NCBI GenBank assembly: GCA_038058475.1 | Contig: JBBUAW010000007.1 | Span: 1-59,615 of the forward strand | DNA: 59,615 nt | Source: Patescibacteria group bacterium | Lineage (GTDB): Bacteria > Patescibacteriota > Minisyncoccia > Phycocordibacterales > JACOZG01 | Direction: 5' to 3' | Shown here: piece after piece, positions 3,439-40,646 of the stretch | How the letters are laid out: the number at the start of each line of letters is the position of its first letter | Numbering within the stretch: position 1 is the first letter of the stretch | The notes under the pieces: generated by a model | Databases searched by the model: none | Seen by the model: the letters and a program-made list of their open reading frames with translations, nothing else | Told to the model about the DNA's origin: nothing | Translations under genes and position numbers: made by a program

Positions 3439-4690
3439 AGAATTGATTCAAGACATCAAACAACCGAAACGGCGTTTGGCGGAGATTTTGCCTAGAAATC
3501 GCGTAATCAACGATGAGGTGATAGAGCCGCCGCGGCCGCGCCGTCGCCGCGGATGGCTCTGGTTTTTTTTACTGTTAATTATTTTTGGCTTACCGGCGGT
3601 TTATTTCGCCTCTCAATATTTTGCTCAAGCACAGATTAAGGTTGTGCCCAAACGAGCAATTTTAAAATTAGCCGAAACTTTTCAAGCCTTGGCCTTGCCG
3701 GTGGAAGGGGAAGCTCCGGCAGAATCAAAAATCGGCTATCAAACGATGACGGTTCAGGCGAGCGAAGAAACCCCTGTCGCCGTGAGTGAAAAAAAATCAG
3801 TATCCGAACGGGCCAGTGGCAAAATTTTGATTGTTAATCGCTATAGTTCCAGACCGCAAAAATTGATCGCCACCACTCGTTTTCAAGACGTGACTGGCCG
3901 GATTTATCGCCTTCCGAAAGAGGTTAACGTCCCGGGTTATGTTTTGGTTAACGGTAAAATGACCGATGGAGAAATTGAAACCGCCGTGGAAGCCGATAAA
4001 CCGGGGGCGGAATTTAACGGAGAAGTTAAAGAACTGACCATTCCGGCTTTTAAGAGCGACGCGCGGTTTGAAAAAATTACGGCGCGGGGTTTGGCGCCGT
4101 TCACCGGCGGTTTTGTCGGCGAACGCGCCGTAATCGCGCCGGCCGATCGAACGAAAGCCGAACAAGAACTGACCGAACGTCTACGCTCAATATTACTTGA
4201 TGAAGCAACAGCTTCCGTCCCGGACGGTTTTTTGACCTTTCCCGCCGGGCAATTTTTTAAATTTCAAAGTCGAACGGAAACTAAAACTCCGGAGACTTTA
4301 ACTGTCACTCTGGACGGAGAATTGACCGCCTTGATTTTTTCCCGCCGCAAATTAAGCCAATATCTCGCCGCCTCGGCGCTGACGGATTATGGCGGCGAAG
4401 AAGTGGAAATTACTGATTTTGACAATCTGAAGTTTGAAATTTCTCAAACTGACACTTTTGATCCCCTGACCGCCAAAGCCGTGGAAATAAAAGTCAACGG
4501 TTCAGCCGAGTTGGTTTGGCAGTTTGACCGGTCGGCTCTGCAAAAAGCGCTAGCTGGCGTCAGTCAAGAAGATTATCAAACGGTGTTTTTAAAATTTCCA
4601 AGCATCGTTCATATTGAAACGGTAATTCAACCGCCTTGGTTGAGGCGTTTTCCGTCGGAGACCGCCCGGATTGAAATTTTGGTTGATTGA
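3431..4690 (+). CDS. hypothetical membrane-anchored protein (one N-terminal TM, large extracytoplasmic part)
   Basis: 419-aa ORF; basic N-terminus (PRPRRRRG) followed by the TM segment WLWFFLLLIIFGLPAVYF; translationally coupled to 2236-3438. Confidence 0.6.
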   Translation: MGKELIQDIKQPKRRLAEILPRNRVINDEVIEPPRPRRRRGWLWFFLLLIIFGLPAVYFASQYFAQAQIKVVPKRAILKLAETFQALALPVEGEAPAESKIGYQTMTVQASEETPVAVSEKKSVSERASGKILIVNRYSSRPQKLIATTRFQDVTGRIYRLPKEVNVPGYVLVNGKMTDGEIETAVEADKPGAEFNGEVKELTIPAFKSDARFEKITARGLAPFTGGFVGERAVIAPADRTKAEQELTERLRSILLDEATASVPDGFLTFPAGQFFKFQSRTETKTPETLTVTLDGELTALIFSRRKLSQYLAASALTDYGGEEVEITDFDNLKFEISQTDTFDPLTAKAVEIKVNGSAELVWQFDRSALQKALAGVSQEDYQTVFLKFPSIVHIETVIQPPWLRRFPSETARIEILVD

Positions 4691-4691
4691 T

Positions 4692-4720
4692 TTGACCAAT
4701 AATTCAATCTTTGTTAGTAT
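4692..4720 (+). promoter_or_regulatory. sigma70-like promoter TTGACC-N17-TAGTAT upstream of infA
   Basis: -35 at 4692-4697, -10 at 4715-4720 preceded by TGt; about 34 nt before the infA ATG. Confidence 0.5.
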
Positions 4721-4754
4721 AGGATTATAGGTCTAAATCGCCACGAAATACGGA

Positions 4755-4970
4755 ATGGATCAGAAACCTAATGAATCAGTTACCGCAGTGGTCGTTGAGG
4801 CGTTGCCTAATGTTTTGTTTCGGGTGATTCTCGATTCAAACGGCGAGCAAATTTTAGCTTACCTCGCCGGCAAGATGCGCCTACATCGCATTAAGGTGTT
4901 AGTCGGCGATCGGGTTGAGCTTTGGCTTGACCCTTATGGCGGTAAGGCGCGAATTATTAAACGGCTATAG
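4755..4970 (+). CDS. infA: translation initiation factor IF-1
   Basis: 71-aa S1-like OB-fold sequence (VVEALPNVLFRV...GKMRLHRIKVLVGDRV); canonical position before rpmJ-rpsM. Confidence 0.95.
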   Translation: MDQKPNESVTAVVVEALPNVLFRVILDSNGEQILAYLAGKMRLHRIKVLVGDRVELWLDPYGGKARIIKRL

Positions 4971-4974
4971 ATTA

Positions 4975-5091
4975 ATGCAGATTAAATCAACAGTCAGAAA
5001 ACGTTGTGCCAGTTGTCGGATGGTCAAACGTCGAGGCCATCTGTATGTTCTTTGCCGCACCAAACCGCGGCATAAACAAAAACAAGCTTAA
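4975..5091 (+). CDS. rpmJ: 50S ribosomal protein L36
   Basis: 38-codon ORF below the track cutoff: MQIKSTVRKRCASCRMVKRRGHLYVLCRTKPRHKQKQA. It has the Cys/His zinc-ribbon pattern and sits between infA and rpsM. Confidence 0.9.
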   Translation: MQIKSTVRKRCASCRMVKRRGHLYVLCRTKPRHKQKQA

Positions 5092-5102
5092 TATTTTTAT
5101 CT

Positions 5103-5483
5103 ATGCGCATTGCCGGTGTCACTTTACCAGACGGAAAACAGTTGGGAACCGCCCTGACGGCGATTTATGGTGTTGGCCGGAGTCGCGCTGTCAAAATCTT
5201 AAGGCAAGCCAAAATTGATGCCAATAAGCGGACCAACACCGTCACGACCGCCGAAGAAACAGCGATTCGCAAGTTGATTGAAGAATTGAAAATTGAAGGC
5301 GCCCTAAAACGGGAGATCGCCGGTAATATTAAACGTTTGATTGACATTAAATCCTATCGCGGCGCACGGCATGAACGACATCTGCCCGTGCGCGGCCAGC
5401 GGACAAAGACTAATTCTCGGACGCGGCGCGGTAATGTTCGCAAAACCATGGGTTCGGGCCGGAAGAAATTGGAGAAAAAATAA
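5103..5483 (+). CDS. rpsM: 30S ribosomal protein S13
   Basis: MRIAGV...TAIYGVGRSRA...IKSYRGARH signature; conserved cluster order. Confidence 0.97.
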   Translation: MRIAGVTLPDGKQLGTALTAIYGVGRSRAVKILRQAKIDANKRTNTVTTAEETAIRKLIEELKIEGALKREIAGNIKRLIDIKSYRGARHERHLPVRGQRTKTNSRTRRGNVRKTMGSGRKKLEKK

Positions 5484-14974: not shown

Positions 14975-15784
14975 TTACCGATTAATGATAATCGGCGCCC
15001 GCACGCCTTGGCTTTGACAAGTGGTGACTGTTTTCGTGACCGGTCGCGTTAATGACCAAGTCGTTTCCGTTTCGGTGTTCAGAGAGCTCGGCGAAGGGTG
15101 GTAATAACGAATGGTTTGCGCCACTTCAATAATCACCGGTGGCAAAACATTTCGACAATCGGCACAATCCGTCCCGGGCGGACAGGAAGCAAAAACCATT
15201 TCGTTGCCTTGATAGCAGAAACTTTCGGTGTCGCCGCAGGCGCCGGCTTCTTCGCAGATTCCGTTATTGGACCCGGTGCCGGCGATCGGATAGCAAGTGT
15301 CGCCGCAAACCGTCGCTTCGCCGGTTAACTCAACGACAACCTCGCCGTTTAGCAGTTGTTCATAACCAACAACTGACAACACCACTGTCCGCCCCTCAAA
15401 ATTGCGCGTTAAAGTGGCCCCCGGCCGCAATTCCAAACCGCCGCCGGTACCGGTTGCCGCAGACGTCCCGGCGTTCAAAACCGTCGCCGGAATTGCCGGA
15501 TAACCCTCGGCGGTGATGGTGATGGACGAAAGACCGCCGTTAACAGTGGTAAACGGCGGCAGCGATTCAATTTCCATTTTGGACTCGCAATCTTCGCCGC
15601 CGGTATAAATCCCCGGCCGCAAAGAGCCCGCGCCTTGGCTGGCCGCCACCGACATAGTCATTTCGTTGTTATGATTGGCATTGCCAATCCGGGAAGAAGA
15701 AACCGTTGCTTCGTTACCGCAACCGGTCGCTAGGCAAATTCCCAAACAGTTGAACAGTCCGTACCCAATCTCCAATGTCCTCAT
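14975..15784 (-). CDS. Cys-rich putative lipoprotein, GC-rich gene
   Basis: Start set at MRTLEIG... . Lipobox LATGC follows a hydrophobic segment. The C-terminus has 10 Cys including ...CPPGTDCADC. No family recognised. Confidence 0.6.
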   Translation of the reverse strand: MRTLEIGYGLFNCLGICLATGCGNEATVSSSRIGNANHNNEMTMSVAASQGAGSLRPGIYTGGEDCESKMEIESLPPFTTVNGGLSSITITAEGYPAIPATVLNAGTSAATGTGGGLELRPGATLTRNFEGRTVVLSVVGYEQLLNGEVVVELTGEATVCGDTCYPIAGTGSNNGICEEAGACGDTESFCYQGNEMVFASCPPGTDCADCRNVLPPVIIEVAQTIRYYHPSPSSLNTETETTWSLTRPVTKTVTTCQSQGVRAPIIINR

Positions 15785-15867
15785 CCTCGTTCTCCGTAAA
15801 AAATCCCATTCAAACACAAAGAACTAACCGTTTTTATCTTAACACACTGCATTAATCTTACAAATAA

Positions 15868-15876: not shown

Positions 15877-15883
15877 ATCAGTG

Positions 15884-16534
15884 ATGTCTGATCTGCTTGC
15901 CGTTTTGACGATGGTGGTCGGCGCCGGCCTTTTACTCTTTATCCGGTTTTGGCAGAGCCGCCGGCGGAGCCGGCACTGGCTGGCCGATCTTCTCACCGCG
16001 CTCGGCCTCGTCGCGCTGATGGCCGCGGCGCTCGGCTGGCTCGGCCGCTTGCCTTGGTGTGATTGCGGCTACATCAATCTCTGGTACGGCGACGCTTACG
16101 GCAGTCAAAACTCGCAACATTTATTTGATCCTTACACTTTCACCCATCTGCTCCACGGTCTCGGTTTTTATTTCTTGCTCTGGCTCATTCTGCCGCGGCG
16201 CGTGCCGTTTGTCTGGCGATTGTTGATGGCGGTCGCGCTGGAGGCGAGTTGGGAAGTAGTGGAAAATACCTCGCTGGTGATTGAATATTATCGCGCGGTC
16301 ACCGCTTCACTCGGTTACTATGGCGACACGATTATTAACTCGCTCGGCGATATCGCGACGATGAGCCTGGCTTTTATCTTAGCCGCCCGTTTTCCCGCCT
16401 GGATCAGTGTGGTCATTTTTGTCGGCATTGAAGTCTTGTTTTTGATTTGGATTCGCGATAACTTGACTCTCAATATCTTGATGCTCCTTTACCCGATTGA
16501 ATCAATTAAGCTTTGGCAGGTTGGCATTGGGTAG
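15884..16534 (+). CDS. multi-pass membrane protein, DUF2585/UPF0314-like
   Basis: Motifs CDCGYINLWYG...SQHLFDPYTFTHLLHG and SWEVVENT recall the UPF0314 family. Assignment is from memory, not searched. GC-rich. Confidence 0.5.
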   Translation: MSDLLAVLTMVVGAGLLLFIRFWQSRRRSRHWLADLLTALGLVALMAAALGWLGRLPWCDCGYINLWYGDAYGSQNSQHLFDPYTFTHLLHGLGFYFLLWLILPRRVPFVWRLLMAVALEASWEVVENTSLVIEYYRAVTASLGYYGDTIINSLGDIATMSLAFILAARFPAWISVVIFVGIEVLFLIWIRDNLTLNILMLLYPIESIKLWQVGIG

Positions 16535-16561: not shown

Positions 16562-16909
16562 ATGAGAAATTTTTTATACGTCATTATCGCGGTCATCGTC
16601 GCGGTTTCCGCAAATTCAATAAGCGCTGTCTGGGCAAAACCAGAGAATAAATTCTCAATCTGGCTCTTGGCCGTTATTCTTATTTCCCCATTAGTTTTTA
16701 TCACTTATGGGTTTGTCACTTCTAGAATCGGCGTGGCGCTGGCTTCCAGTGTGATTGATTCTTTGATGATTATCGGGTCAATTATAGTCGGCCTCTTTTT
16801 CTTTAATGAGTGGAATAAAATCCTAGGACTCCAGTATCTTGGAATGGGGCTCGCTGTTCTCGGTGTTCTATTAATCATCTTCTCTCCCTACCTGACATTC
16901 ACGAAATGA
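16562..16909 (+). CDS. small 4-TM transporter-like protein (SMR/EamA-half-like)
   Basis: 115 aa with four hydrophobic helices; no TM1 glutamate of EmrE type; stop overlaps the next start (ATGA). Confidence 0.6.
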   Translation: MRNFLYVIIAVIVAVSANSISAVWAKPENKFSIWLLAVILISPLVFITYGFVTSRIGVALASSVIDSLMIIGSIIVGLFFFNEWNKILGLQYLGMGLAVLGVLLIIFSPYLTFTK

Positions 16910-18714
16910 ATCCGTATAAAAACGATAAATCATTCTTGGAACCGATTGATTTTTCTTCCGTCAATGAAACATCCTTGGCATTTGCAGACTATCTCACCGC
17001 CCACTTTGAAGAAATTGCGGACATCCTGCTTGAATATGAGAGCTTTGAAGTGGTCAAGGATGAGTTTAATCGGACCATTGACCTTTTTAGAAATCTTTAT
17101 GAAAACAAAGACTATTTTATTCTTCGCGTTAATGATATCACAGCTTTTTTACCCAGAAATCAACCGCTCTACGCCTTTTCTTGTTTCGTTGCCGTGCCGT
17201 CTCTGATGGCGCGCGAGGTGCATTTCCGCATTCCGCACAGTATGCGCGGCTTTTTCTCGAAATTACTCCAAACACTTAAAATAAAAGAATTTTTTCCCAA
17301 TATTATTATTTCAAAAAAAGAAAGATTAGAATTCTTAAAAGAGCGGTCGGCGCTTCTCATGGACCCTAAAAATACCAATAGTTTGCCGATAACCGACGCA
17401 GTTGTTTTTACCGGAACTCCCCACCATGCAGAACGTCTTCGTTCAATTTTTGACACCCGAACATTGTTTATTGCCAATGGCGCCGGACATAATCCGGTTA
17501 TAGTCTCGATTGATGCTGATATACAAAAGACCGTAGAAGCGACACTTAAACTCCAATTATACAACCAAGGACAGGATTGTGCCGCGCCCAATGCGATTTT
17601 AGTCTATCAGAATGTTTATCAGCCGTTTTTGCATTCATTGCGTGCCGAATTGGCAAAAGTGAAAATCGGCCCATATCGCGACCGGTCTTGCCGAGTCGGC
17701 CCGATCAGCGATCCTGAAGATCTGAAACGGATTGGGGGGTTTATTGTTGATAATCAAGTTTGGCTTGACCCGAGCACCAAGGGAGTGATTCGGACAGCCG
17801 AAACAATTGTAGAACCGACGATTATTTGCAAACCGCTGAAAGAGGGAGGAAATTATTCGGAAATTTTCGCGCCAATCATTTTTGTCCAGAAATACGAAAA
17901 AGATGCCGATCTGGCTTTATATTTTGAAAATCAGCAATACGCCCGAAATGCTATGTATGTTACTTTGTATGGCGACAGTAAATATATCAGAAATCTTATT
18001 GGAAAAAAAATTGGGGGGAAAATACTGCATCACAAAGAAACTTTTCTTCATAATACTCACTTGCACGCGCCGGGAGTGGAGCGGGGGACGCAGCCCTACG
18101 GGGGTTACGGTTACGGCGCGTCAAGCATCAGCATTAACGGCAAAATTATGCCAAAACCGACTTGTCCCCAGCGAGACATTTATGAACACCTGGTGAAGCC
18201 CTTGATTAAATCGGAAAAAATAAAAGAGTATAAAGATAGATTGTCTCGGTTGACTAAAAAAGTAACCAAGAATATCCCCAAACTGATGGGACTTAAACTG
18301 AATACGCCAGCCGTTCAGAAAGAAATAAATACCGGGAAAAGCTATTTGGATTTTTTGAGCATTAAAAAAATAGGTCGACGGTATGTGGAATTATCGGCCA
18401 AACAAATGTTTCTGCTTCGGGAACACGCGGACTCCGAGTTGATCGCCCGACTGGAAATGGAAGATAAAAAACAGATTCAAATTTTGCGAAAATTTTTAAT
18501 GAATCGCAAAAGGATTGATTTGGGCGAATTTACCACCTTTCTTTATTCAATTTCAAAAAAACCGGGACTTTCGGCGGCGGGAAATCGCCACCGGCAATTG
18601 CATTTTTTCCACAATATTTATCAACTTCTTTTCGGCAAAAAATCGGGGCCGCGGCTAGCCCAATTCCTGCTTGACACCGACCGGCAAAAAATTTGCGAAC
18701 TTTTGGATGTTTAA
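16906..18714 (+). CDS. aldehyde dehydrogenase-superfamily enzyme fused to a class-I aaRS-type C-terminal helical (tRNA-binding-like) domain
   Basis: ALDH landmarks PRNQPL, FTGTP, GQDCAAPN (Cys nucleophile) and EIFAPI. ELGG is replaced by ANGAGHNP. The tail HFFHNIYQLLFGKKSGPRLAQFLLDTDRQKICELL parallels the GltX/LysRS-I C-terminus. Confidence 0.6.
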   Translation: MNPYKNDKSFLEPIDFSSVNETSLAFADYLTAHFEEIADILLEYESFEVVKDEFNRTIDLFRNLYENKDYFILRVNDITAFLPRNQPLYAFSCFVAVPSLMAREVHFRIPHSMRGFFSKLLQTLKIKEFFPNIIISKKERLEFLKERSALLMDPKNTNSLPITDAVVFTGTPHHAERLRSIFDTRTLFIANGAGHNPVIVSIDADIQKTVEATLKLQLYNQGQDCAAPNAILVYQNVYQPFLHSLRAELAKVKIGPYRDRSCRVGPISDPEDLKRIGGFIVDNQVWLDPSTKGVIRTAETIVEPTIICKPLKEGGNYSEIFAPIIFVQKYEKDADLALYFENQQYARNAMYVTLYGDSKYIRNLIGKKIGGKILHHKETFLHNTHLHAPGVERGTQPYGGYGYGASSISINGKIMPKPTCPQRDIYEHLVKPLIKSEKIKEYKDRLSRLTKKVTKNIPKLMGLKLNTPAVQKEINTGKSYLDFLSIKKIGRRYVELSAKQMFLLREHADSELIARLEMEDKKQIQILRKFLMNRKRIDLGEFTTFLYSISKKPGLSAAGNRHRQLHFFHNIYQLLFGKKSGPRLAQFLLDTDRQKICELLDV

Positions 18715-18738: not shown

Positions 18739-19230
18739 TTAATCCTCGCAGACAAAAACCATCTTTAAAGTTTCCGGCAGATTTTTGTTATTTGGATATT
18801 TTATAATCTCAGACTTTTTGAAACCAGACTTTTCGTAAGCCCTGATAGCTCTCGCATTGTTGGGGCGGACCTCCAGATAAATTTTATTAATATCAAGCCC
18901 TTGCGCTTTCTCTAGCATTTTTTTTATAGCGATTGTTCCGTAACCCCTGTCTCGGTATTCTTTTTCTCCTATAATAATTTGTGTCTCATACCAGGCGGAT
19001 TTGCGTTTAACAAATGATATGTGTCCGATGATAGTTTTGCCCACGGTGATAAGAAAATGATAAGCGCTTTTTTCACCAGTAACTATCCGAGAAAAATATT
19101 TTTCTATTTTTTGGTCGGCAATGCGGCGCAGTATACCGCTGGTTAAGGTAAGCAGTTCCTTATCTCTCCACCACTTGGTGAAATATTTTTTGTCACCCGG
19201 GACGATTTTTCGTAATTTTAGTCTGTCCAT
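18739..19230 (-). CDS. GNAT-family N-acetyltransferase (RimJ/RimL-like)
   Basis: Acetyl-CoA motif EYRDRGYGTIAIKKMLEKA and ARAIRAYEKSGFK. Start set at MDRLKLRKI (19230). The track start 19332 would read through a terminator hairpin. Confidence 0.8.
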   Translation of the reverse strand: MDRLKLRKIVPGDKKYFTKWWRDKELLTLTSGILRRIADQKIEKYFSRIVTGEKSAYHFLITVGKTIIGHISFVKRKSAWYETQIIIGEKEYRDRGYGTIAIKKMLEKAQGLDINKIYLEVRPNNARAIRAYEKSGFKKSEIIKYPNNKNLPETLKMVFVCED

Positions 19231-19276
19231 AAATAAAAACGAGGCTAAGAGAAGTATAACACTTTTCTTAGCCTCG
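19231..19276 (-). terminator. rho-independent terminator between the rSAM and GNAT genes
   Basis: Perfect 11-bp stem CGAGGCTAAGA/TCTTAGCCTCG with a 15-nt loop, followed on the minus strand by TTTTTATTT, which abuts the GNAT ATG. Confidence 0.7.
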
Positions 19277-19356
19277 CGTACCACCATCCCAGTGTGTTTT
19301 AGTGGCAGTTGCTGGGTCGTTGACAAGTGCAAAGCACTTTTAGTTTTGGCAACGAC

Positions 19357-20859
19357 CTAACCCTGATAATCGACTGTTGCCCTCGTTTTTTTCGTTTGGG
19401 TATCGTTTTCTGCATAATACTCACCCCCTTCTTTTGCAGTTTGGAGAAATTCTGGCTCTAACACCATCGCTTCCCGCAGTTGTTCTCGAAGAATCTCTTG
19501 AGTCATTCGACGGTAGAAATCACACATCCTTTCGATCTTGGCGGTTTTAGTTGCTCGAGCAAACTCTTGTGTGATATTACAACCGCCGGCGCATTGTCCC
19601 TCGATCATGCATCCTTTGCACATCTCCATTACGCCAGTGAGATGATCTCTCACGAAACAATGATAAGCGGCGCCGGGCGCGTGGAACGATTGGATTTCCG
19701 AAAGATTGCCGAGTTGAGTCGTGCTATAACTACATCCGTAAATATTTCCGGACGGGCCTACGCACATGCTGTTGCCGCGAACTGCGCCGCAAAACGCCAC
19801 GCGACTCTCCAGTGTAAATTCGTTAAGATTTTCAGCCGGTCGAGACCAGAAACCAGGAACATCGACACCTTTTGCTGCCGCATAGCGCCGGATGCTCATC
19901 AGTTTCGTGACAACCCCCTCCACCGGAATTTCTACCATATTGACTACATCAATATCGATTCTGATATTCTTCATGCCACGGGCTATCGCCCAATCGATAA
20001 TTGACTCATCAAGCTGGTGAAAATTATTTTCGGTGACTGTCACCGCAATGCCATCGAGCGGGTATCTCGCCTGAGCCAACGCATCGAATCCACGCATGAT
20101 CTGGAGAAATGTACCGTCTCCGGACTTTGTCAGTCGTACACGATCATTTTCCTCACGCGAGCCATCGAGACTGGAAGCGATCTCAACGCCATACTCTTTG
20201 AGGGTCGCGGCGATCTCCGGCATGATAAGCGAAGCGTTTGTATTGATCGAGAAACGGAATTCGAACTCCGAGCTGTAGGTGGCATGACAATATTCAAGCA
20301 CTTGCTTAATCACGGACCATACTAGCAGTGGTTCGCCTCCACCGAAGTTGATTTCGGCGGTACTCTTTCCGTGCCCGCGAAGAATCTCGAGATACCGACC
20401 CACCGTTTCTTTAGCTGTTTCGAACCGCATAAACTTTTTTGGATTGTTGATACGGTCGGAAGTTTCCAAGTTGTTGAAATGGATGCAGTAGGTGCAACGG
20501 AAGTTGCACGCCTCGCTCATGATGAGTTCAAAATAGTCAATCAGCGAACCGCTGATAATTTCTGCTTCGCGCCCCTTCATCTTCTCCTCAAGAAATGCTC
20601 GATCATCAAAATCCTCGGTAACGAGAAAATAACATCGTAATAATTCCTCAATCGCTTCCCGATCTTCCTCAGTCAGTTCATTGCCGAGTTGTAAACAAAT
20701 CGTTGTTGGTTTCGAAAACAACTCTATAAATTCTAGCGTCTCGGCAGGAATAATTTTTGGGTAACCAAACAACGAGTGCCAAATTACTGCGCAGTCGCTA
20801 TTCCGGACGACTTGCAAGAACGGTGACTTCACATATACGGCATTGAAATTAATTTCCAC
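19357..20859 (-). CDS. radical SAM / SPASM-domain maturase with N-terminal RRE(PqqD)-like domain
   Basis: CNFRCTYC (CxxxCxxC) about 115 aa from the N-terminus. C-terminal auxiliary-cluster Cys motifs CGAVRGNSMCVGPSGNIYGC and CKGCMIEGQCAGGC. GTG start with AAGGA SD. Confidence 0.88.
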   Translation of the reverse strand: MEINFNAVYVKSPFLQVVRNSDCAVIWHSLFGYPKIIPAETLEFIELFSKPTTICLQLGNELTEEDREAIEELLRCYFLVTEDFDDRAFLEEKMKGREAEIISGSLIDYFELIMSEACNFRCTYCIHFNNLETSDRINNPKKFMRFETAKETVGRYLEILRGHGKSTAEINFGGGEPLLVWSVIKQVLEYCHATYSSEFEFRFSINTNASLIMPEIAATLKEYGVEIASSLDGSREENDRVRLTKSGDGTFLQIMRGFDALAQARYPLDGIAVTVTENNFHQLDESIIDWAIARGMKNIRIDIDVVNMVEIPVEGVVTKLMSIRRYAAAKGVDVPGFWSRPAENLNEFTLESRVAFCGAVRGNSMCVGPSGNIYGCSYSTTQLGNLSEIQSFHAPGAAYHCFVRDHLTGVMEMCKGCMIEGQCAGGCNITQEFARATKTAKIERMCDFYRRMTQEILREQLREAMVLEPEFLQTAKEGGEYYAENDTQTKKTRATVDYQG

Positions 20860-20932
20860 GGCAGTTTCCTTTCCATGTAATGTAAAGGTGCTATTACTTG
20901 AACCCCCCGCGAAGTTTCAAGGTTACTAATAC

Positions 20933-21072
20933 CACCTTATACCCACTCGACATTTTGTCAAGACGAAAAAATTTTGCTAGAATCTCAATAATGAACTCTT
21001 TTAAAAACAAAATTAATATACTGGCTTGGGTGACGATTATCGGAGGAACGATTGCCGTGGTGGCGGTATCGT
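20933..21072 (+). repeat. direct repeat 'h' (histidine-kinase promoter and first ~27 codons), diverged copy
   Basis: The first 52 bp are identical to 23651-23702. The coding part is only partly identical to the real kinase 5' end (roughly three-quarters by eye), with many synonymous differences. Confidence 0.9.
20955..20983 (+). promoter_or_regulatory. duplicated promoter TTGTCA-N17-TAGAAT
   Basis: Identical to the kinase promoter; -10 ends 7 nt before ATG 20991. Confidence 0.55.
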
Positions 21073-21116
21073 TATTTATCAACTTCTTCTCGGCAAAGAA
21101 TCGGGGCCGCGGCTAG
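20991..21116 (+). pseudogene. chimeric 41-codon ORF (kinase N-terminal TM fragment fused out of frame to the ALDH-gene 3' end)
   Basis: MNSFKNKINILAWVTIIGGTIAVVAVSLFINFFSAKNRGRG*; junction at 21072/21073 within the microhomology TATTTATCAAC. Confidence 0.6.
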
Positions 21117-21174
21117 CCCAATTCCTGCTTGACACCGACCGGCAAAAAATTTGCGAACTTTTGGATGTTTAGGT
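21073..21174 (+). repeat. direct repeat 'a', copy 2
   Basis: Matches 18615-18716, including the gene's last codons and stop region. Confidence 0.9.
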
Positions 21175-21205
21175 GAATCCAAAAAATTACCAGTAATAGT
21201 GAAAT

Positions 21206-21856
21206 ATGGACGAAATAAAAATTCAGGAAAATCGCGAAAAAGATTCTATAAGAAAATACTGGTTTGGATACCTAGCGCATAATTTTGTAGTTAAAAAACT
21301 GTTTGCGTTATCGTCCAAACGATTACAAAACAGAATAGTGAGTTTGGTCGTCGGTACACCAAGAAGTATTCTCGATACATCGTGCGGAGACGACGACTTA
21401 ATAGTCAGAATTTGTCGAAAATTCGGAGCGAGCATCTGTATTGCCAACGACCTTTCTCCCCAATTAACATCTTTTATCAATGATACCGGAGTAATTTTGA
21501 GACGCACTAATTTTAATATATTATCCCAACCCTTTGTCAATAAATTTGATCTTGTTGTCTGTAAAAATACTCTTCACCATATACCCAAAGACTACCAGGC
21601 CAATCTGATTGGTTATTTATTGAAAATATCGCGTCAACTAATAATCGTTGACATTGAGAACCCAAAAAACAGCAGCATCAGAGCGAGAATCTGGAATTGG
21701 TATTATCGGATCATCCTTGGGGACAAGAGCGATTATTTTTTAGATTTCGAAGAGTTTCAATCAACCCTTTCGTCTGCTGGAAACCAATTTACTTTTGGCA
21801 AATTTCCGACAATGAAAGGAGATTATATGTATGGTGTCACCACTAAAGAAACTTAA
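21206..21856 (+). CDS. class I SAM-dependent methyltransferase
   Basis: Motif I variant ILDTSCGDDDL and post-II DLVVCKNTLHHIP; AT-rich; 3' end overlaps the convergent CYTH gene by 14 nt. Confidence 0.7.
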   Translation: MDEIKIQENREKDSIRKYWFGYLAHNFVVKKLFALSSKRLQNRIVSLVVGTPRSILDTSCGDDDLIVRICRKFGASICIANDLSPQLTSFINDTGVILRRTNFNILSQPFVNKFDLVVCKNTLHHIPKDYQANLIGYLLKISRQLIIVDIENPKNSSIRARIWNWYYRIILGDKSDYFLDFEEFQSTLSSAGNQFTFGKFPTMKGDYMYGVTTKET

Positions 21857-22457
21857 GATCGGACTCCAGTCTCGCGTAATCTTCTCTGGATCCAGAAAAA
21901 ACCCAATCTACTTTTTTCGTCAACCTTTTACATAAGTCATTAAACTGATCTTTACCCATGGGCAACAAATCAAACTCACTTAATATTCTCCCTAACCGCC
22001 CTCGCTCCTGCTCGATTAATTTTTCATCCTCAGTGTTTATCATTTTTTCTATTTCTATGTAAGATATAGGTCCGGCGTTGACTGACGCAATTTCATAATC
22101 ATCTTTTTTTGAAACAAAACGTGTTGTTTGTCGCCGCATAACCTTAGAATCAAAACCCAGTGCGTTGAAGATTTTAACGAAACCTAAAAACTGTTCTAGT
22201 TTGATTTGTTGAATCACTTCCATCCGGTCATGGGTATGAAAGTCGCCTCGTTTTAGAACTACCTCCGAGTATTTTTTTGAATTGGTTCTTACCCTGATGT
22301 CATAATTTATATTATTTATGGTACCGAGAAACAAAACCGAGATTCTGTTTTCAGATGAACTCAATACAAATTGAGAAATAATTTTTTTTTCGACAAGCTC
22401 TCGTTTTTCTTCCGGTATTTCTGACCTCAACTCAATTTCTTTGTTTATTAAACTCAT
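21843..22457 (-). CDS. CYTH-domain protein (triphosphate tunnel metalloenzyme / CyaB-like)
   Basis: N-terminal EIELR (ExExK-type) and C-terminal YIEIE motifs, about 200 aa, AT-rich. Confidence 0.65.
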   Translation of the reverse strand: MSLINKEIELRSEIPEEKRELVEKKIISQFVLSSSENRISVLFLGTINNINYDIRVRTNSKKYSEVVLKRGDFHTHDRMEVIQQIKLEQFLGFVKIFNALGFDSKVMRRQTTRFVSKKDDYEIASVNAGPISYIEIEKMINTEDEKLIEQERGRLGRILSEFDLLPMGKDQFNDLCKRLTKKVDWVFSGSREDYARLESDLKFL

Positions 22458-22463
22458 AGCGCC

Positions 22464-22472
22464 ATACTATCA
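22464..22472 (-). promoter_or_regulatory. extended -10 (TGaTAGTAT) 6 nt upstream of the CYTH ATG
   Basis: Minus strand reads TGATAGTAT-ggcgct-ATG(22457). Confidence 0.45.
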
Positions 22473-22486
22473 CAATTTGAATGTAC

Positions 22487-22515
22487 AAAAAAGAGCGACC
22501 TGCCTTAGGTCGCTC
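22487..22515 (-). terminator. rho-independent terminator after the Tmk-like gene
   Basis: GAGCGACC/GGTCGCTC 8-bp stem, followed on the minus strand by T6. Confidence 0.8.
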
Positions 22516-22535
22516 ATTGAGTGTGATTTTTCGTC

Positions 22536-23084
22536 TTACAAATCGATAGCCTTGACCACGATTTCGGCGCAGGCTTCCGGTGAAAACCTTTGAGTGTCAA
22601 TCATCACGAATGGCAGATTGAACTCTAATGCGTTTTTATAAAACAGAGTTGTGATTTCGCGTTGGATATCAAGCACTCGTCGATCCCCCGCAGACAATCC
22701 CCGATGCATCATTCTCTCTGCTTGAACTTCGTAATTCAGAGAGAGAATTACTGTCAGCGTCGGTGTGACGACAGAAAGAAAATCGTTTGCTGGCACTACG
22801 ACCCCCATTGCTTGGTGATAGGTGTAAGTCGAGAGCCAATACCGATCCGAAACGATTTTACCGCCGTTGGCTAAGATGGACCCAATCTCCTCGGAGGCGT
22901 CATAAATGCCATCCCGGTAAAATTTATAGTGTTCTTCCGGCGGCGAACTCTTGTCCACTCGTTCTCGAATTACGAGATACTTCCTAGGTGGTGTGGCATA
23001 AGCTACAGCTCCCAATTTTTTTGCCAGGATTGGGCAGAGTGTGCTTTTACCACACCCGTCCGCGCCCTCTATGACAATGAACAT
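22536..23084 (-). CDS. thymidylate kinase-family nucleotide kinase (divergent)
   Basis: P-loop IVIEGADGCGKST and DRYWLSTYTYHQ (the DRY..S..AYQ motif of Tmk). The region after the P-loop is atypical (AYATPPRKY). Confidence 0.7.
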   Translation of the reverse strand: MFIVIEGADGCGKSTLCPILAKKLGAVAYATPPRKYLVIRERVDKSSPPEEHYKFYRDGIYDASEEIGSILANGGKIVSDRYWLSTYTYHQAMGVVVPANDFLSVVTPTLTVILSLNYEVQAERMMHRGLSAGDRRVLDIQREITTLFYKNALEFNLPFVMIDTQRFSPEACAEIVVKAIDL

Positions 23085-23087
23085 GTT

Positions 23088-23567
23088 TTACCTCCTTTCC
23101 CATTGAACGTTCAAAAGTAACAATCTTTTTCTTTTGTCGCCGATAGTTACTTCTACAATATCACCGATTGTGATGCCTAACACAGCTTGGCCAAGCGGTG
23201 CCATATAGGATACACTAGTCCCGGTATTATCGAAGATCATAGCACTACCGACACGAAAACTCTTTTCCTCGCCCGTATCCAGGTATTTGACTGTAACAAG
23301 ACAACCAATTCTCACCTTACCATCTGTTGGTAATGGGGTATATTCAACGAGTGAAGCCTCCCTCCTAACCAACAGGAGTTGTCGTAAATGATTTGACCAC
23401 ATTGCTGCTGCTCTTTGACCTTCCTCATAGCCTGGATTGTCATGTGAAGTTTCTGCTCCCTGTTGGCAACTCTCTCCGATTTCCCGCAAGGCCTTCTCGA
23501 TCTCCTTCTTTGTTTCTTTAATCTTACGATCGAGCGTTTCCAGATCCTCCTTCAAGAAATATCCCAT
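23088..23567 (-). CDS. GreA/GreB-family (Gre/Rnk-like) factor
   Basis: N-terminal coiled coil with tip ETSHDNPGYEEG (compare GDLSENAEY) and a C-terminal Gre FKBP-like domain (RIGCLVTV..L.TGEE..F.V). GGAG SD. Confidence 0.7.
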   Translation of the reverse strand: MGYFLKEDLETLDRKIKETKKEIEKALREIGESCQQGAETSHDNPGYEEGQRAAAMWSNHLRQLLLVRREASLVEYTPLPTDGKVRIGCLVTVKYLDTGEEKSFRVGSAMIFDNTGTSVSYMAPLGQAVLGITIGDIVEVTIGDKRKRLLLLNVQWERR

Positions 23568-23650: not shown

Positions 23651-23790
23651 CACCTTATACCCACTCGACATTTTGTCAAGACGAAAAAATTTTGCTAGAA
23701 TCCCAATAATGAACCCTCGTAAAAACAAAATAAATGTCTTGGCCTGGATAATTATTATTGGCGGGACAATCGCTGTGGTGGTGGTATCAT
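23651..23790 (+). repeat. direct repeat 'h', resident copy (bidirectional promoter and kinase 5' end)
   Basis: See 20933-21072. The upstream ACCTTGAAA (-35 of the leftward promoter) is also shared by both copies. Confidence 0.9.
23673..23701 (+). promoter_or_regulatory. kinase promoter TTGTCA-N17-TAGAAT (TGc-extended), 7 nt before the ATG
   Basis: -35 at 23673-23678, -10 at 23696-23701, ATG at 23709. Confidence 0.6.
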
Positions 23791-25253
23791 TTATTTTATA
23801 TCAACACACGGTGAATCTTCTTACTGGCAATCTGCGGCAACGGATTGAGAGTATTGCGCGAACTGCCGTTCCCGCCTTTGATCCAAAAGATATTAAGGAA
23901 TTACAAACAGAACCTGATTGGCAGAAGCCGGAGTGGAGCAGGGTGGTAAATCAATTGTTGGCCATTGAGCAGAGTCATATCGACATTCTTTTCGCCTACA
24001 TTTTTAGAAAAGATCCCAACGATCCAAATCAAATGAATTTTGTGGCGGACTCCCATTCAATAAATCCATACGCCAACACCGATGACGATCCGACAAATGA
24101 TGTTGACGCTAATCGAGACGGTGTTATTGAGCCGGATGGAGCTGATTATCTACAGTGGCCCGGACAAGATTACGAACCCCCTCCGGAAGGAACTTTTAGG
24201 GCGTATGAAGTTGGTCCCACCACCAGTAAAGAATTATATGAAGATTCATTCGGGCGTGTGATTACCGGCTACGCTCCAATCGTGAGTAACGGAGAGACAA
24301 TCGCGGTGCTGGCGATTGACATAAAAGCCGATGATTTTTTTACTATTACGCGGCAAACCCTTTATCCGTTTTTAAGTTTTATTTTTTTCCTTATTCTTAT
24401 CATTTTATTCCTCTTCTATTTTATTATCAAAATGTGGGGTAAGCAATTAAAGAAGGAAGTGGCACATGTGGAACAAGTTGAAGGTCTGGTGAGCGAATTA
24501 AATAAAACTAACGATAAACTCTGGGCGGCTAATGACAAACTGCAAGAGCTGGACAAACTAAAAACGGAATTCGTATCAATGGCGACGCATCAATTGCGGT
24601 CACCGCTGACGGCAATCAAGGGTTACGCGTCAATGTTGCTGGAAAATTCGTTCGGGCCGGTGGAAACAAAAGCGCGCGGGGCGATGGAGATTATTTTTCA
24701 ATCCAGTCAAAAGTTGGTTCATGTGATTGAAGATTTTCTCAATATCACGCGGATTGAACTCGGCACGATGAAATATGAAAAAATCCAGTTTGATTTCAGT
24801 TCTCTGGTGAACAATGTCGTGACGGAATTAAAACCGAACATTGAAAAACGCCGACTCAAGTTTTCGGTGGAAGTGGCGCCGAAAGTCAATTTTCACGTAA
24901 CCGGCGATTCGGGGAAGCTGTCGCAGGTGGTTAGCAATTTGATTGATAATGCGATTAAATATACGCCGCCGCTTTCAACCGGCGGCGAACCTGGCACAAT
25001 TCGGATTTTACTCGATCGCGTTAAAGAAAAAATTCGACTGGTGGTGGCGGACAACGGCGCCGGCATTCCGGCCGCAACGATTCCAAAATTATTCCAAAAA
25101 TTCATTCGCGCCGACGACGCCGGTAAATTAAACATCACCGGCACCGGTCTCGGCCTTTATGTCGCCAAGCAAATTGTAGAAGCGCACAACGGCAAAATCT
25201 GGGCCGAGTCGGACGGCCCGGGCCGCGGCAGTCGGTTTGTGGTGGAGGTATAA
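23709..25253 (+). CDS. sensor histidine kinase with extracytoplasmic domain
   Basis: H-box MATHQLRSPLTAIKGY, N-box NLIDNAIKYTP, G-boxes DNGAGIP and GTGLGLYVAK. Two TMs flank a roughly 200-aa domain. No response regulator is adjacent. Confidence 0.9.
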   Translation: MNPRKNKINVLAWIIIIGGTIAVVVVSFILYQHTVNLLTGNLRQRIESIARTAVPAFDPKDIKELQTEPDWQKPEWSRVVNQLLAIEQSHIDILFAYIFRKDPNDPNQMNFVADSHSINPYANTDDDPTNDVDANRDGVIEPDGADYLQWPGQDYEPPPEGTFRAYEVGPTTSKELYEDSFGRVITGYAPIVSNGETIAVLAIDIKADDFFTITRQTLYPFLSFIFFLILIILFLFYFIIKMWGKQLKKEVAHVEQVEGLVSELNKTNDKLWAANDKLQELDKLKTEFVSMATHQLRSPLTAIKGYASMLLENSFGPVETKARGAMEIIFQSSQKLVHVIEDFLNITRIELGTMKYEKIQFDFSSLVNNVVTELKPNIEKRRLKFSVEVAPKVNFHVTGDSGKLSQVVSNLIDNAIKYTPPLSTGGEPGTIRILLDRVKEKIRLVVADNGAGIPAATIPKLFQKFIRADDAGKLNITGTGLGLYVAKQIVEAHNGKIWAESDGPGRGSRFVVEV

Positions 25254-39344: not shown

Positions 39345-40646
39345 ATGTCAGTCATTGTGCGATTTGCGCCGAGTCCGACCGGGCCGTTGCATCTTGGTGG
39401 CGCGCGGACGGCGCTGTTTAACTATCTTTTTGCCAAAAAAGCCGGCGGGAAAATCTATCTGCGGATTGAAGACACTGACCGCGAGCGGTCCAAACCGGAA
39501 TTTGAACAAAATATTTTTGACAGTCTCAATTGGCTCGGTTTGAAATTTGATAATTCGGAGCCGATTCGCCAATCGGCGCGCAGTGAAGTTTATCAAAAGG
39601 TTTTGACTCAATTAATTTCCACCGGCGCGGCTTATATCTCAAAAGAAGAAAACCAAGCGGGGAGCGATGAAAATAAAAGAAGCGAGGTCGTCCGTTTTAA
39701 GAATCCGAACCAGACAATTTCTTTCGTTGATTTGATTCGCGGCGAAATTACTTTTGATACCAAAGAATTAGGCGATTTTGTGATTGCCAAAAGTTTAACC
39801 GAACCGCTTTACCATTTAGCCGCGGTCGCCGACGATATTGAAATGGGAGTCACACAGGTAATTCGGGGCGAGGACCATATTTCCAACACTCCGCGGCAAA
39901 TTTTATTGATTGAGGCGCTTGGCGCCGCGCGGCCGACCTACGCTCACATTCCGCTGATTTTAGCCCCGGACCGGTCAAAATTATCCAAAAGGCACGGCGC
40001 CGTATCAGTTACCGAATATCGCGCGCGGGGTTATTTACCGGAAGCGCTGGTTAATTATTTAGCGTTACTCGGTTGGAACCCGGGTACGGCCGAAGAAATT
40101 TTTTCGCTTGATGAATTGGTTCAACGGTTTTTGCTCGCCAAAGTCCAGAAAGCCGGCGCAATTTTTGATTTGGTAAAATTGAATTGGCTGAATCGGGAAT
40201 ATTTGAAACGATTGCCGGACGAAATTTTAATCAATCAAGCGCCGCCGGAAATTGACGAAAAAATTGTTCGTAAAATTATGCCCCTGATCAAAGAACGGCT
40301 AACCATTTTAACCGACTTAAAACAATTGCTTGGCGAAAGAGGGGAATTTAATTATTTTTTTCAACCACCAGCTTACGGTCTAGAGTTGTTAAAAAATCAG
40401 AAGCATTTTAAAAAATTATCCGAATTAATTAACTCTGTGGGTAATCGTGATGATGATTTTACCGCCGAAAAAATAAAAGCGAAAATCATGCCTTATGCCG
40501 ATCAAGAGGGGAGAAGTGAGGTTTTGTGGCCTTTTCGGGCGGCTTTGACTGGTCGGGAAAAATCACCCGACCCGTTCACAGTGGCGGCGATTTTGGGAAA
40601 GGAGGAAACCTTAAAACGTTTGGTGTATGCCGAGAATCTGGTTTAA
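39345..40646 (+). CDS. gltX: glutamyl-tRNA synthetase
   Basis: RFAPSPTGPLHLGGARTA (HIGH class) and KLSKRHG (KMSKS); 433 aa. Confidence 0.95.
   Translation: MSVIVRFAPSPTGPLHLGGARTALFNYLFAKKAGGKIYLRIEDTDRERSKPEFEQNIFDSLNWLGLKFDNSEPIRQSARSEVYQKVLTQLISTGAAYISKEENQAGSDENKRSEVVRFKNPNQTISFVDLIRGEITFDTKELGDFVIAKSLTEPLYHLAAVADDIEMGVTQVIRGEDHISNTPRQILLIEALGAARPTYAHIPLILAPDRSKLSKRHGAVSVTEYRARGYLPEALVNYLALLGWNPGTAEEIFSLDELVQRFLLAKVQKAGAIFDLVKLNWLNREYLKRLPDEILINQAPPEIDEKIVRKIMPLIKERLTILTDLKQLLGERGEFNYFFQPPAYGLELLKNQKHFKKLSELINSVGNRDDDFTAEKIKAKIMPYADQEGRSEVLWPFRAALTGREKSPDPFTVAAILGKEETLKRLVYAENLV

Follow-up and report, generated by a model that had tools for sequence, protein, structure and literature searches.

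The subject of this work is a pair of overlapping genes at positions 16562–18714 of a 59,615-nucleotide stretch of DNA from a Patescibacteria group bacterium (contig JBBUAW010000007.1, forward strand), the whole of which is hereafter called the window. The first gene encodes a small membrane protein (SMP) with four transmembrane (TM) segments, and the second a 602-residue protein which, as judged from profile matches and predicted structure, joins an aldehyde dehydrogenase (ALDH)-superfamily domain to a class-I lysyl-tRNA synthetase (LysRS-I) piece. A first-pass annotation of the window had read this protein as a possible reductase tethered to a tRNA-recognition module, and that reading is supported as far as computation can test it, the activity, the substrate and the use of tRNA being offered here as predictions. 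Both open reading frames (ORFs) are as it had described them, with the stop codon of the SMP gene overlapping the start of the fusion gene in the ATGA read in the sequence at 16906–16909. The features of the pair are as follows.

16562–16909, + strand: SMP, small 4-TM membrane protein of 115 aa (ORF call)
16906–18714, + strand: fusion protein of ALDH domain, linker and tail, 602 aa (ORF call)
16906–18177, + strand: ALDH-superfamily catalytic domain, residues 1–424 (PF00171, AlphaFold/Foldseek, residue mapping)
17158–17160, + strand: oxyanion Asn85 (residue mapping)
17476–17478, + strand: Asn191, in place of the general-base Glu (residue mapping)
17578–17580, + strand: nucleophile Cys225 (residue mapping)
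17860–17862, + strand: Glu319 (residue mapping)
Further key residues of the ALDH domain: Arg108 (at the position of Lys192), FTG168–170, His195, His387 and Glu392 (residue mapping)
18178–18393, + strand: linker, residues 425–496, specific to the architecture called type A below (secondary structure of the model, charge)
18394–18714, + strand: tail, residues ~497–602 and the stop codon, assigned to the C-terminal helical subdomain of the LysRS-I anticodon-binding (alpha-helix cage) domain

The ALDH domain

The ALDH-like motifs on which the first-pass annotation relied (PRNQPL, FTGTP, GQDCAAPN, EIFAPI and ANGAGHNP) are all present in the 602-residue translation. The N-terminal domain matches Pfam Aldedh (PF00171) at 87.9 bits against a cutoff of 23 (E = 7e-25), and with an AlphaFold2 model of the full-length protein, built on 37 homologues (pLDDT 91, pTM 0.88), Foldseek returned many ALDH structures, among them ALDH2, GapN and SSADH, over ~450 columns at E ~1e-19. 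As a numbering ruler we used the human ALDH2 sequence, aligned by profile: PRNQPL corresponds to PWNFPL (Asn169), R108 to Lys192, H111 to Glu195, FTG168–170 to Gly245, C225 to Cys302 and E319 to Glu399. The assignment of the domain to the ALDH superfamily thus holds for the profile, for the fold and for the positions of the catalytic Cys, Asn and Glu.

The hallmark of the hydrolysing ALDHs, the general base Glu268 within ELGGKSP, is missing, as had been noted from the motif ANGAGHNP found in its place. In a phmmer alignment to PDB 4o5h, N191 falls on the general-base Glu of ELGGKSP, and in the profile alignment to ALDH2 the segment ANG[AS]GHNP holds no acidic residue. The Asn is invariant among 78 ALDH domains of the three architectures described below (types A, B and C), which come from the Candidate Phyla Radiation (CPR), Proteobacteria and Actinobacteria and share a mean identity of 40–47% between types. 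Equally invariant in this set are N85, R/K108, F168-T169-G170, H195-N196-P197, the NQGQDC block with C225, E319, P323, H387 and E392, while F321 is kept in 76 of the 78. The position equivalent to Glu195 of ALDH2 is occupied by His or Thr and not by Glu; a residue other than Glu at this position is compatible with NADP(H). Because the NAD(P) site and Cys225 are present and the general base is gone, the predicted enzyme can bind NAD(P) and form a Cys thioester that it cannot itself hydrolyse, the residue for hydrolysis being absent. By analogy, this is the situation of the ALDH-superfamily reductases and of the acyl-transferring members.

Membership of the window protein in the LuxC family (PF05893) was considered and rejected, as Pfam gives no such hit; in its relatives LuxC appears as a secondary hit of 21.8–26 bits against a cutoff of 21. 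TIGR01722, the methylmalonate-semialdehyde dehydrogenase (MMSDH) family, is among the weak NCBIfam matches of the window protein.

The linker and the tail

The linker consists of two helices and short strands, with lower model confidence at residues 460–490. It is absent from LysRS-I, in which the matches of the tail profile begin only at about position 72, and it is basic on average (mean net charge +4.3, pI 8.8 among 43 orthologues).

The origin of the tail is indicated by several kinds of comparison. Scanned alone against NCBIfam, residues 488–588 match positions 407–499 of the 515 of TIGR00467, the LysRS-I family (E = 1.3e-8), at a score of 30.5–33.8 bits, which is far under the 147.55-bit cutoff. 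In the Protein Data Bank (PDB) the tail matches residues 445–518 of Pyrococcus horikoshii LysRS-I (1IRX), with E = 6.7e-6 for the sequence on its own and 1.7e-9 for a profile of 24 sequences, and this sequence search found no other aminoacyl-tRNA synthetase (aaRS) chain. A separate AlphaFold model of residues 425–602 has pLDDT above 89 over the last 100 residues, and the fold search with the tail only ranked 1IRX at the top (probability 1.0, 99 columns, rmsd 2.7 Å, 25% identity), with bacterial glutamyl-tRNA synthetase (GluRS) structures next. Among 1.84 billion representative proteins, the tail profile finds CPR LysRS-I of ~520–595 aa at E ~1e-20 to 1e-24; the alignment with these enzymes runs end to end and reaches their extreme C-terminus (LLDV/LLDI), and the tail has in common with them an insertion which is absent from the archaeal enzyme. 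The conserved motif, FFxxxYQLLxGKxSGPRLxxFL...LLDV, includes the invariant residues Y572, L574, G581, P582 and F587, although the sequences are only 34–65% identical in this region. Taken on these profile and fold matches, the last ~105 residues represent the C-terminal subdomain of the anticodon-binding domain of LysRS-I. In bacterial GluRS and in class-I LysRS, the domain that binds the anticodon is the alpha-helix cage (PMC2978374).

The first-pass annotation had compared the tail more broadly to a Glu/Lys-tRNA synthetase module, had seen the same pattern in the GltX encoded in the window and had listed GatB/YqeY among the candidate matches. The LysRS-I part of this comparison stands by profile and by structure, while the likeness to the Glu-type enzymes exists at the fold level only. 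The window GltX (39345–40646) does carry the motif quoted for it, but the tail profile has no sequence-level match in its C-terminus (hhalign E = 0.32); for GatB/YqeY, there was no Pfam hit of GatB_Yqey (PF02637) on the tail at E ≤ 1 and no GatB chain in the PDB sequence or fold searches. A GatB/YqeY or GluRS origin of the tail was rejected on these grounds.

Of the rest of LysRS-I nothing was detected in the window protein: there is no PF01921 hit and no match to a home-made hidden Markov model (HMM) of the LysRS-I catalytic domain, that is, no Rossmann domain, HIGH or KMSKS. To judge by its sequence, the protein cannot be a synthetase.

Three architectures of one ALDH subfamily

Homologues of the full length (at least 120, at 53–82% identity) come from Patescibacteria (CPR) assemblies, and the architecture recurs in hundreds of independent CPR assemblies, by which an assembly artefact or chimera is ruled out as the source of the fusion. 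In 80 loci taken from species-representative genomes, the ORFs of which were scanned with home-made HMMs, the ALDH subfamily was found in three arrangements.

Type A, as in the window: ALDH, linker and tail, 587–645 aa; CPR
Type B: ALDH, complete LysRS-I and tail, 977–1117 aa; CPR loci L047, L048, L052 and L061; proteins P0148, P0150, P0159 and P0176
Type C: LysRS-I catalytic domain followed by ALDH, 936–991 aa; Photorhabdus, Xenorhabdus, Brenneria, Photobacterium, Vibrio, Pseudomonas and several actinomycetes

With 43 independent loci surveyed for type A, the fusion is clearly not peculiar to this contig. All three points on which the first-pass annotation had said that its reading could fail were checked, and for each the outcome was the favourable one: the tail is related to a synthetase module, the N-terminal domain belongs to the ALDH superfamily and the fusion recurs.

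In types B and C the synthetase half, apparently active, preserves the HIGH-like (HFGN / HIGT) and KMSKS-like (KMSGSKGN / KISKSKGN) motifs, with the exception of the type B protein of L052 (1310–4276), in which they are degenerate (HFGC; ERHAHEL); by its motifs, the synthetase part of this protein may be inactive and the protein an intermediate towards the type A architecture. In a further locus, L054, the parts of type B are present as two adjacent genes. New in this work are the fusions of one ALDH subfamily to a complete LysRS-I, which occur in either domain order and in phyla far apart; they are strong evidence that the two activities work on the same substrate chain. The protein belongs to an undescribed ALDH subfamily, the evolution of which is tied to LysRS-I and which can be recognised by the signature NG[AS]GHNP, NQGQDC, H387 and E392.

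The first-pass annotation knew of no described family with such an architecture, and we found none in papers, annotations or database names. Some sources misname the homologues 'lysyl-tRNA synthetase class I', whereas the RefSeq name for type C is only 'aldehyde dehydrogenase family protein'. Our literature search gave no description of an ALDH-LysRS fusion, of a lysyl-tRNA reductase or of lysine aldehyde made from tRNA; a 2006 survey of organisms possessing both LysRS classes has no mention of Photorhabdus or of fusions, and a plasmid search with the Photorhabdus fusion returned generic LysRS or ALDH matches only.

Two further variants were noted. One CPR genome has, 2.4 kb from its type A gene, a second and tail-less divergent paralogue of the ALDH subfamily (409 aa; L034, 1736–2965, − strand). 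A LysRS-I protein (P0263, 679 aa), as well as the fragments P0177, P0225, P0245 and P0260, has, beyond the tail module, a PF01588 tRNA_bind (EMAPII-like) domain added at the C-terminus, which makes it a further variant of LysRS-I with an appended domain.

Gene neighbourhood

Neighbours were counted in 43 non-redundant type A loci. In 27 of them the SMP gene immediately precedes the fusion gene, so that the partnership with a small membrane protein, first noticed in the window, is a conserved one. The strongest contextual partner, however, is one that the first-pass annotation missed: a sensor histidine kinase, whose gene follows the fusion gene immediately and on the same strand in 35 of the 43 loci, at distances of −59 to +95 nt, and is nearby in 4 more. 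The kinase does not adjoin types B and C. Conservation of both neighbours spans lineages that are ~55% identical. In the window, the orthologue of this kinase is separated from the fusion gene by other genes.

18739–23567: intervening block of ~5 kb with six genes, between the fusion gene and the kinase gene
23673–25253, + strand: sensor histidine kinase (526 aa) with TM segment, ~190-aa extracytoplasmic domain, TM segment, HisKA and HATPase_c

The SMP has hydrophobic segments at residues 4–20, 31–47, 64–80 and 92–108, and its orthologues upstream of other fusion genes are 36–65% identical. Its description as an SMR/EamA-half-like 4-TM protein was right as to the four segments, while the family matches are all below threshold (SMR, PF00893, 0.67; EamA, PF00892, 0.41; and, in an orthologue, TMEM234, PF10639, at E = 2.6e-4). 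TM1 has no Glu, whereas proton-coupled SMR proteins carry a membrane-embedded Glu there, and the sole conserved acidic residue is E83, after TM3. The SMP is probably a small DMT-type transporter or a flippase subunit. Directly 5′ of its gene there is a gene for a DUF2585 membrane protein (15881–16534, + strand; PF10755, E = 9e-66), which is not among the neighbour clusters found in at least 5 type A loci. Further upstream, a Cys-rich ORF of 280 aa on the opposite strand (14975–15817, −) has a lipobox-like LATGC near its N-terminus, no Pfam match and a local GC peak of 53%.

The window kinase is identified by HisKA (1.7e-14) and HATPase_c (3e-27) matches in Pfam, by its two TM segments, by 70% identity to the adjacent kinase of the type A locus L001 and by its score with the kinase HMM (E = 8e-244). 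Between TM2 and HisKA it has no cytoplasmic sensor domain of its own. The extracytoplasmic domain is conserved, with only sub-threshold hints of Cache and EF-hand (Ca-loop) domains, and a search for homologues of the sensor domain returned unannotated fragments. No response regulator recurs within ~7 kb in 45 loci. In some CPR genomes (L014, L030, L046 and L051) additional large multi-domain histidine kinases of ~590–1016 aa flank the triad of SMP, fusion and kinase genes.

The six genes of the block encode, by Pfam and NCBIfam, a GNAT protein, a radical SAM/SPASM maturase-like protein, a methyltransferase, a 204-aa protein without assignment, a dTMP-kinase-like and a GreA-like protein. The GC content of the block is 42–43% against 47–50% in its flanks, it is absent from the other type A loci, and it is probably not part of the system. 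The radical SAM/SPASM peptide-maturase-like protein (19357–20859) has the PapB ranthipeptide maturase as its best NCBIfam hit (E = 3e-39, far below cutoff), and no precursor peptide was identified. That the block forms together with the fusion gene a tRNA-dependent cluster, or one for a ribosomally synthesised and post-translationally modified peptide, was rejected as a general feature, as the block is absent elsewhere and interrupts the fusion-kinase pair. The closest relative, L008, has the upstream synteny in common with the window and is likewise without an adjacent kinase within its 2-kb downstream flank.

The surroundings of the family differ between the types. Around type A there are dnaK-dnaJ-grpE and aaRS genes, and in L005 and L049 LysRS-I genes of the housekeeping type are found 1–4 kb from the fusion. 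In 14 loci, which come from many genera, an MFS transporter gene stands after the type C gene. The LysRS-ALDH gene of Photorhabdus luminescens (L086, 5378–8257) is preceded by ~1.7 kb (3681–5371) without an ORF of ≥90 aa, in which no Rfam family was detected. The contexts of type B are variable and housekeeping-like; some of them contain nucleotidyltransferase + methyltransferase proteins, ~530-aa proteins with a GTP-cyclohydrolase-II-like C-terminus and an ATP-grasp enzyme (L048, 9969–11611; L052, 4176–5792; L053, 9624–11213; L054, 4252–5835 and 9241–10551), which may form a small biosynthetic cluster in some lineages.

Proposed reaction and alternatives

The interpretation that we tentatively prefer is that the protein is the core of a tRNA-dependent lysyl reductase, which would take the lysyl group of Lys-tRNA(Lys) onto Cys225 as a thioester and reduce it with NAD(P)H to lysine aldehyde. 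The tail, aided by the basic linker, would dock tRNA(Lys) charged by the cell's own LysRS; Cys225 would attack the lysyl ester, and NAD(P)H would convert the resulting lysyl-thioester, which without a general base would escape hydrolysis, into L-lysine aldehyde (2,6-diaminohexanal). The logic would be that of GluRS with glutamyl-tRNA reductase (GluTR), of LuxE with LuxC and of ProB with ProA, here with an ALDH fold and with tRNA as the acyl carrier. Type A has kept only the tRNA-recognition piece of the synthetase, an argument that its ALDH domain depends on tRNA and not just on lysine, and the idea of an aminoacyl-tRNA substrate gains independent support from the ALDH fusions to complete LysRS-I with intact motifs. 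Ibba et al. are said to have reported in 1999 that class-I LysRS needs tRNA to activate lysine, which would make tRNA the natural carrier in types B and C too.

More speculatively, the cationic product, or a cyclic imine or dihydropyrazine arising from it spontaneously, might leave the cell through the 4-TM protein that is translated together with the enzyme, and the extracytoplasmic sensor kinase of the operon might respond to the product or control the operon. In favour of the reading as a whole we counted the recurrence of transporters beside the enzyme, the SMP in type A and the MFS protein in type C, as well as the kinase downstream of type A, the nearby LysRS-I genes of the housekeeping type and the weak LuxC hits of the relatives. 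A complete signalling module, in which Lys-tRNA(Lys) would be converted to a lysine-derived amino aldehyde or a pyrazine-type compound, exported by the 4-TM protein and sensed by the kinase, is nevertheless an unlikely extension of the lysyl reductase reading.

Several observations weigh against the lysyl reductase or its extension. Gene order alone suggests the export by the 4-TM or MFS partner and the sensing by the kinase. The tail is only mildly basic (+1.4) and retains only the last subdomain of the LysRS-I anticodon-binding region; in type C it is a weak remnant (hhalign probability 91%, 34 columns), so that lysyl-adenylate itself may be the direct substrate of the type C enzymes. The housekeeping genes around type A would agree as well with a core role, tRNA-related or regulatory, in place of the production of a secreted metabolite. 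Finally, no lysine riboswitch or T-box was found in the window or in nine type B/C loci, and no dedicated tRNA genes were found near the loci.

The same architecture evidence would serve a redox-free tRNA-dependent lysyl transferase, in which Cys225 takes the lysyl group and an amine or hydroxyl acceptor resolves the thioester. The acceptor might be the epsilon-amine of the same lysine, yielding alpha-amino-caprolactam, or another amino acid, or a lipid or cell-wall component; in this last, envelope-directed case the SMP would be a flippase and the kinase an envelope sensor, the whole being a functional analogue of MprF under control of the GraS/ApsS type. The SMP does resemble the small DMT-type 4-TM proteins, which include the ArnE/ArnF lipid flippases, and an operon kinase with an extracytoplasmic domain fits envelope sensing. 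Amines, moreover, can intercept ALDH thioesters, as in the engineered amide-forming ALDH PHBDD, which is among the structural matches. We still consider a transferase improbable, since the NAD(P)-site residues R108, G170 and E319 are invariant in all three architectures, and F321 nearly so, while a pure transferase would not need them. In addition, the window protein has no membrane or lipid-binding segment, and the partner of type C is an MFS transporter, not a flippase-like protein.

The close link with the kinase could also be explained if the protein were an accessory sensor that reports tRNA-Lys charging, the NAD(P)H state or both to the kinase, with catalysis being secondary, loosely like the HisRS-like domain of GCN2. 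The kinase gene, often overlapping the fusion gene, accompanies type A and not types B and C, the kinase itself is without a cytoplasmic sensor domain, and the neighbours of type A are housekeeping, aaRS and chaperone genes. What makes this proposal doubtful is that C225, N85, E319, N191 and H195 are as strictly conserved in type A as in the kinase-free types B and C, and that the large conserved extracytoplasmic domain of the kinase argues for an external signal.

An acylating ALDH run in the oxidative direction would form the Cys225 thioester from an aldehyde and hand the acyl group on, either to tRNA-Lys at its 3′ end or to some other acceptor with a thiol or hydroxyl, in the way that CoA-acylating ALDHs deliver it to CoA. 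CoA-acylating MMSDHs carry Asn at the general-base position, the MMSDH family is among the weak matches of the window protein, and the tail could position a tRNA acceptor. Such a route seems highly unlikely, as in types B and C the fusion to a complete ATP-dependent LysRS with intact motifs would make an ATP-independent route to acyl-tRNA redundant and no aldehyde-generating enzyme recurs in the neighbourhoods. Likewise, we give little credence to an ordinary small-molecule ALDH with a vestigial or purely structural tail left from an old fusion and with coincidental neighbours, for which the intact fold and cofactor residues and the plain 'aldehyde dehydrogenase family protein' of the annotations could be cited, since no member has the hydrolytic Glu, the most conserved motif of LysRS-I persists in the tail with its five invariant residues, the fusion to LysRS-I arose in two orders and the neighbours are conserved across distant lineages.

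Implications

To our knowledge, GluTR is the sole enzyme family known to reduce an aminoacyl-tRNA, and we know of few enzyme types that use aminoacyl-tRNAs outside translation. If the lysyl reductase reading is true, an ALDH-fold enzyme that recruits tRNA-Lys via a borrowed synthetase domain would represent a new class, and a function would be provided for a protein conserved across much of Patescibacteria and for a conserved sensor-kinase operon; the conserved proteins of Patescibacteria are largely uncharacterised. Should the whole signalling module prove true, it would contain the first aminoacyl-tRNA reductase other than GluTR, the signal output of the genome-reduced CPR bacteria would be tied directly to their tRNA-charging state, and the same chemistry would operate in the LysRS-ALDH and MFS cassette of Photorhabdus, Xenorhabdus, Vibrio and Pseudomonas. 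The occurrence of LysRS-ALDH fusions in the culturable and genetically tractable Photorhabdus, Xenorhabdus, Pseudomonas cichorii, Pseudomonas coronafaciens and Vibrio makes the hypothesis directly testable. In addition, the recurring misannotation of the homologues as synthetases is corrected.

Comparison with known systems

The proposed reaction has the same chemistry as that of the GluTR (HemA) and GluRS pair, in which, as proposed here, a Cys attacks the aminoacyl-tRNA ester and NAD(P)H reduces the resulting thioester to an alpha-amino aldehyde. GluRS is also the closest relative of class-I LysRS, having the alpha-helix-cage anticodon domain in common with it (PMC2978374). The fold of the window protein is, however, unrelated to that of GluTR, and no GluTR family (catalytic, NADPH or dimerisation domain) was found in it at E ≤ 1 in Pfam or NCBIfam; the amino acid would be lysine, the recognition of tRNA is proposed to use a borrowed synthetase subdomain, and there is no link to tetrapyrrole genes.

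LuxC/LuxE and ProB/ProA resemble the proposed system in that the Cys of an ALDH-superfamily domain without the general base accepts an activated acyl group, which the domain then reduces to the aldehyde, and P5CS demonstrates that the activating and the reducing enzyme can be fused. Here, in contrast, an aminoacyl-tRNA synthetase is the activating partner, with tRNA as the proposed acyl carrier; the window protein matches neither LuxC nor a ProA model, LuxC being seen weakly in its relatives. The CoA-acylating ALDHs (MMSDH, PduP and EutE) have the same fold and Cys, transfer the thioester instead of hydrolysing it and have lost the general-base Glu, but the subfamily of the window protein has its own signature and an appended tRNA-synthetase module, and nothing points to the use of CoA.

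With class-I LysRS itself (LysK; 1IRX; TIGR00467, PF01921), and especially with its CPR type, the homology extends end to end over the last ~105 residues, while the Rossmann catalytic domain, HIGH and KMSKS of the synthetase have no counterpart in the window protein. A further parallel is provided by the adenylation-carrier-reductase (A-T-R) modules of nonribosomal peptide synthetases and carboxylic acid reductases, such as the synthases of pyrazine and pyrazinone signals, which release amino aldehydes: in them, too, ATP-dependent activation and a (thio)ester are followed by reductive release of an amino aldehyde, open to cyclisation or dimerisation and to export. The window system has no adenylation, carrier or SDR-type reductase domain, activation being left to an aaRS and the carrier's part falling, as proposed, to tRNA. 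The architecture as such is undescribed, and the two kinds of system to which it would belong are known: acyl reductases of the ALDH type that are paired with an activating enzyme, and reductases that depend on tRNA.

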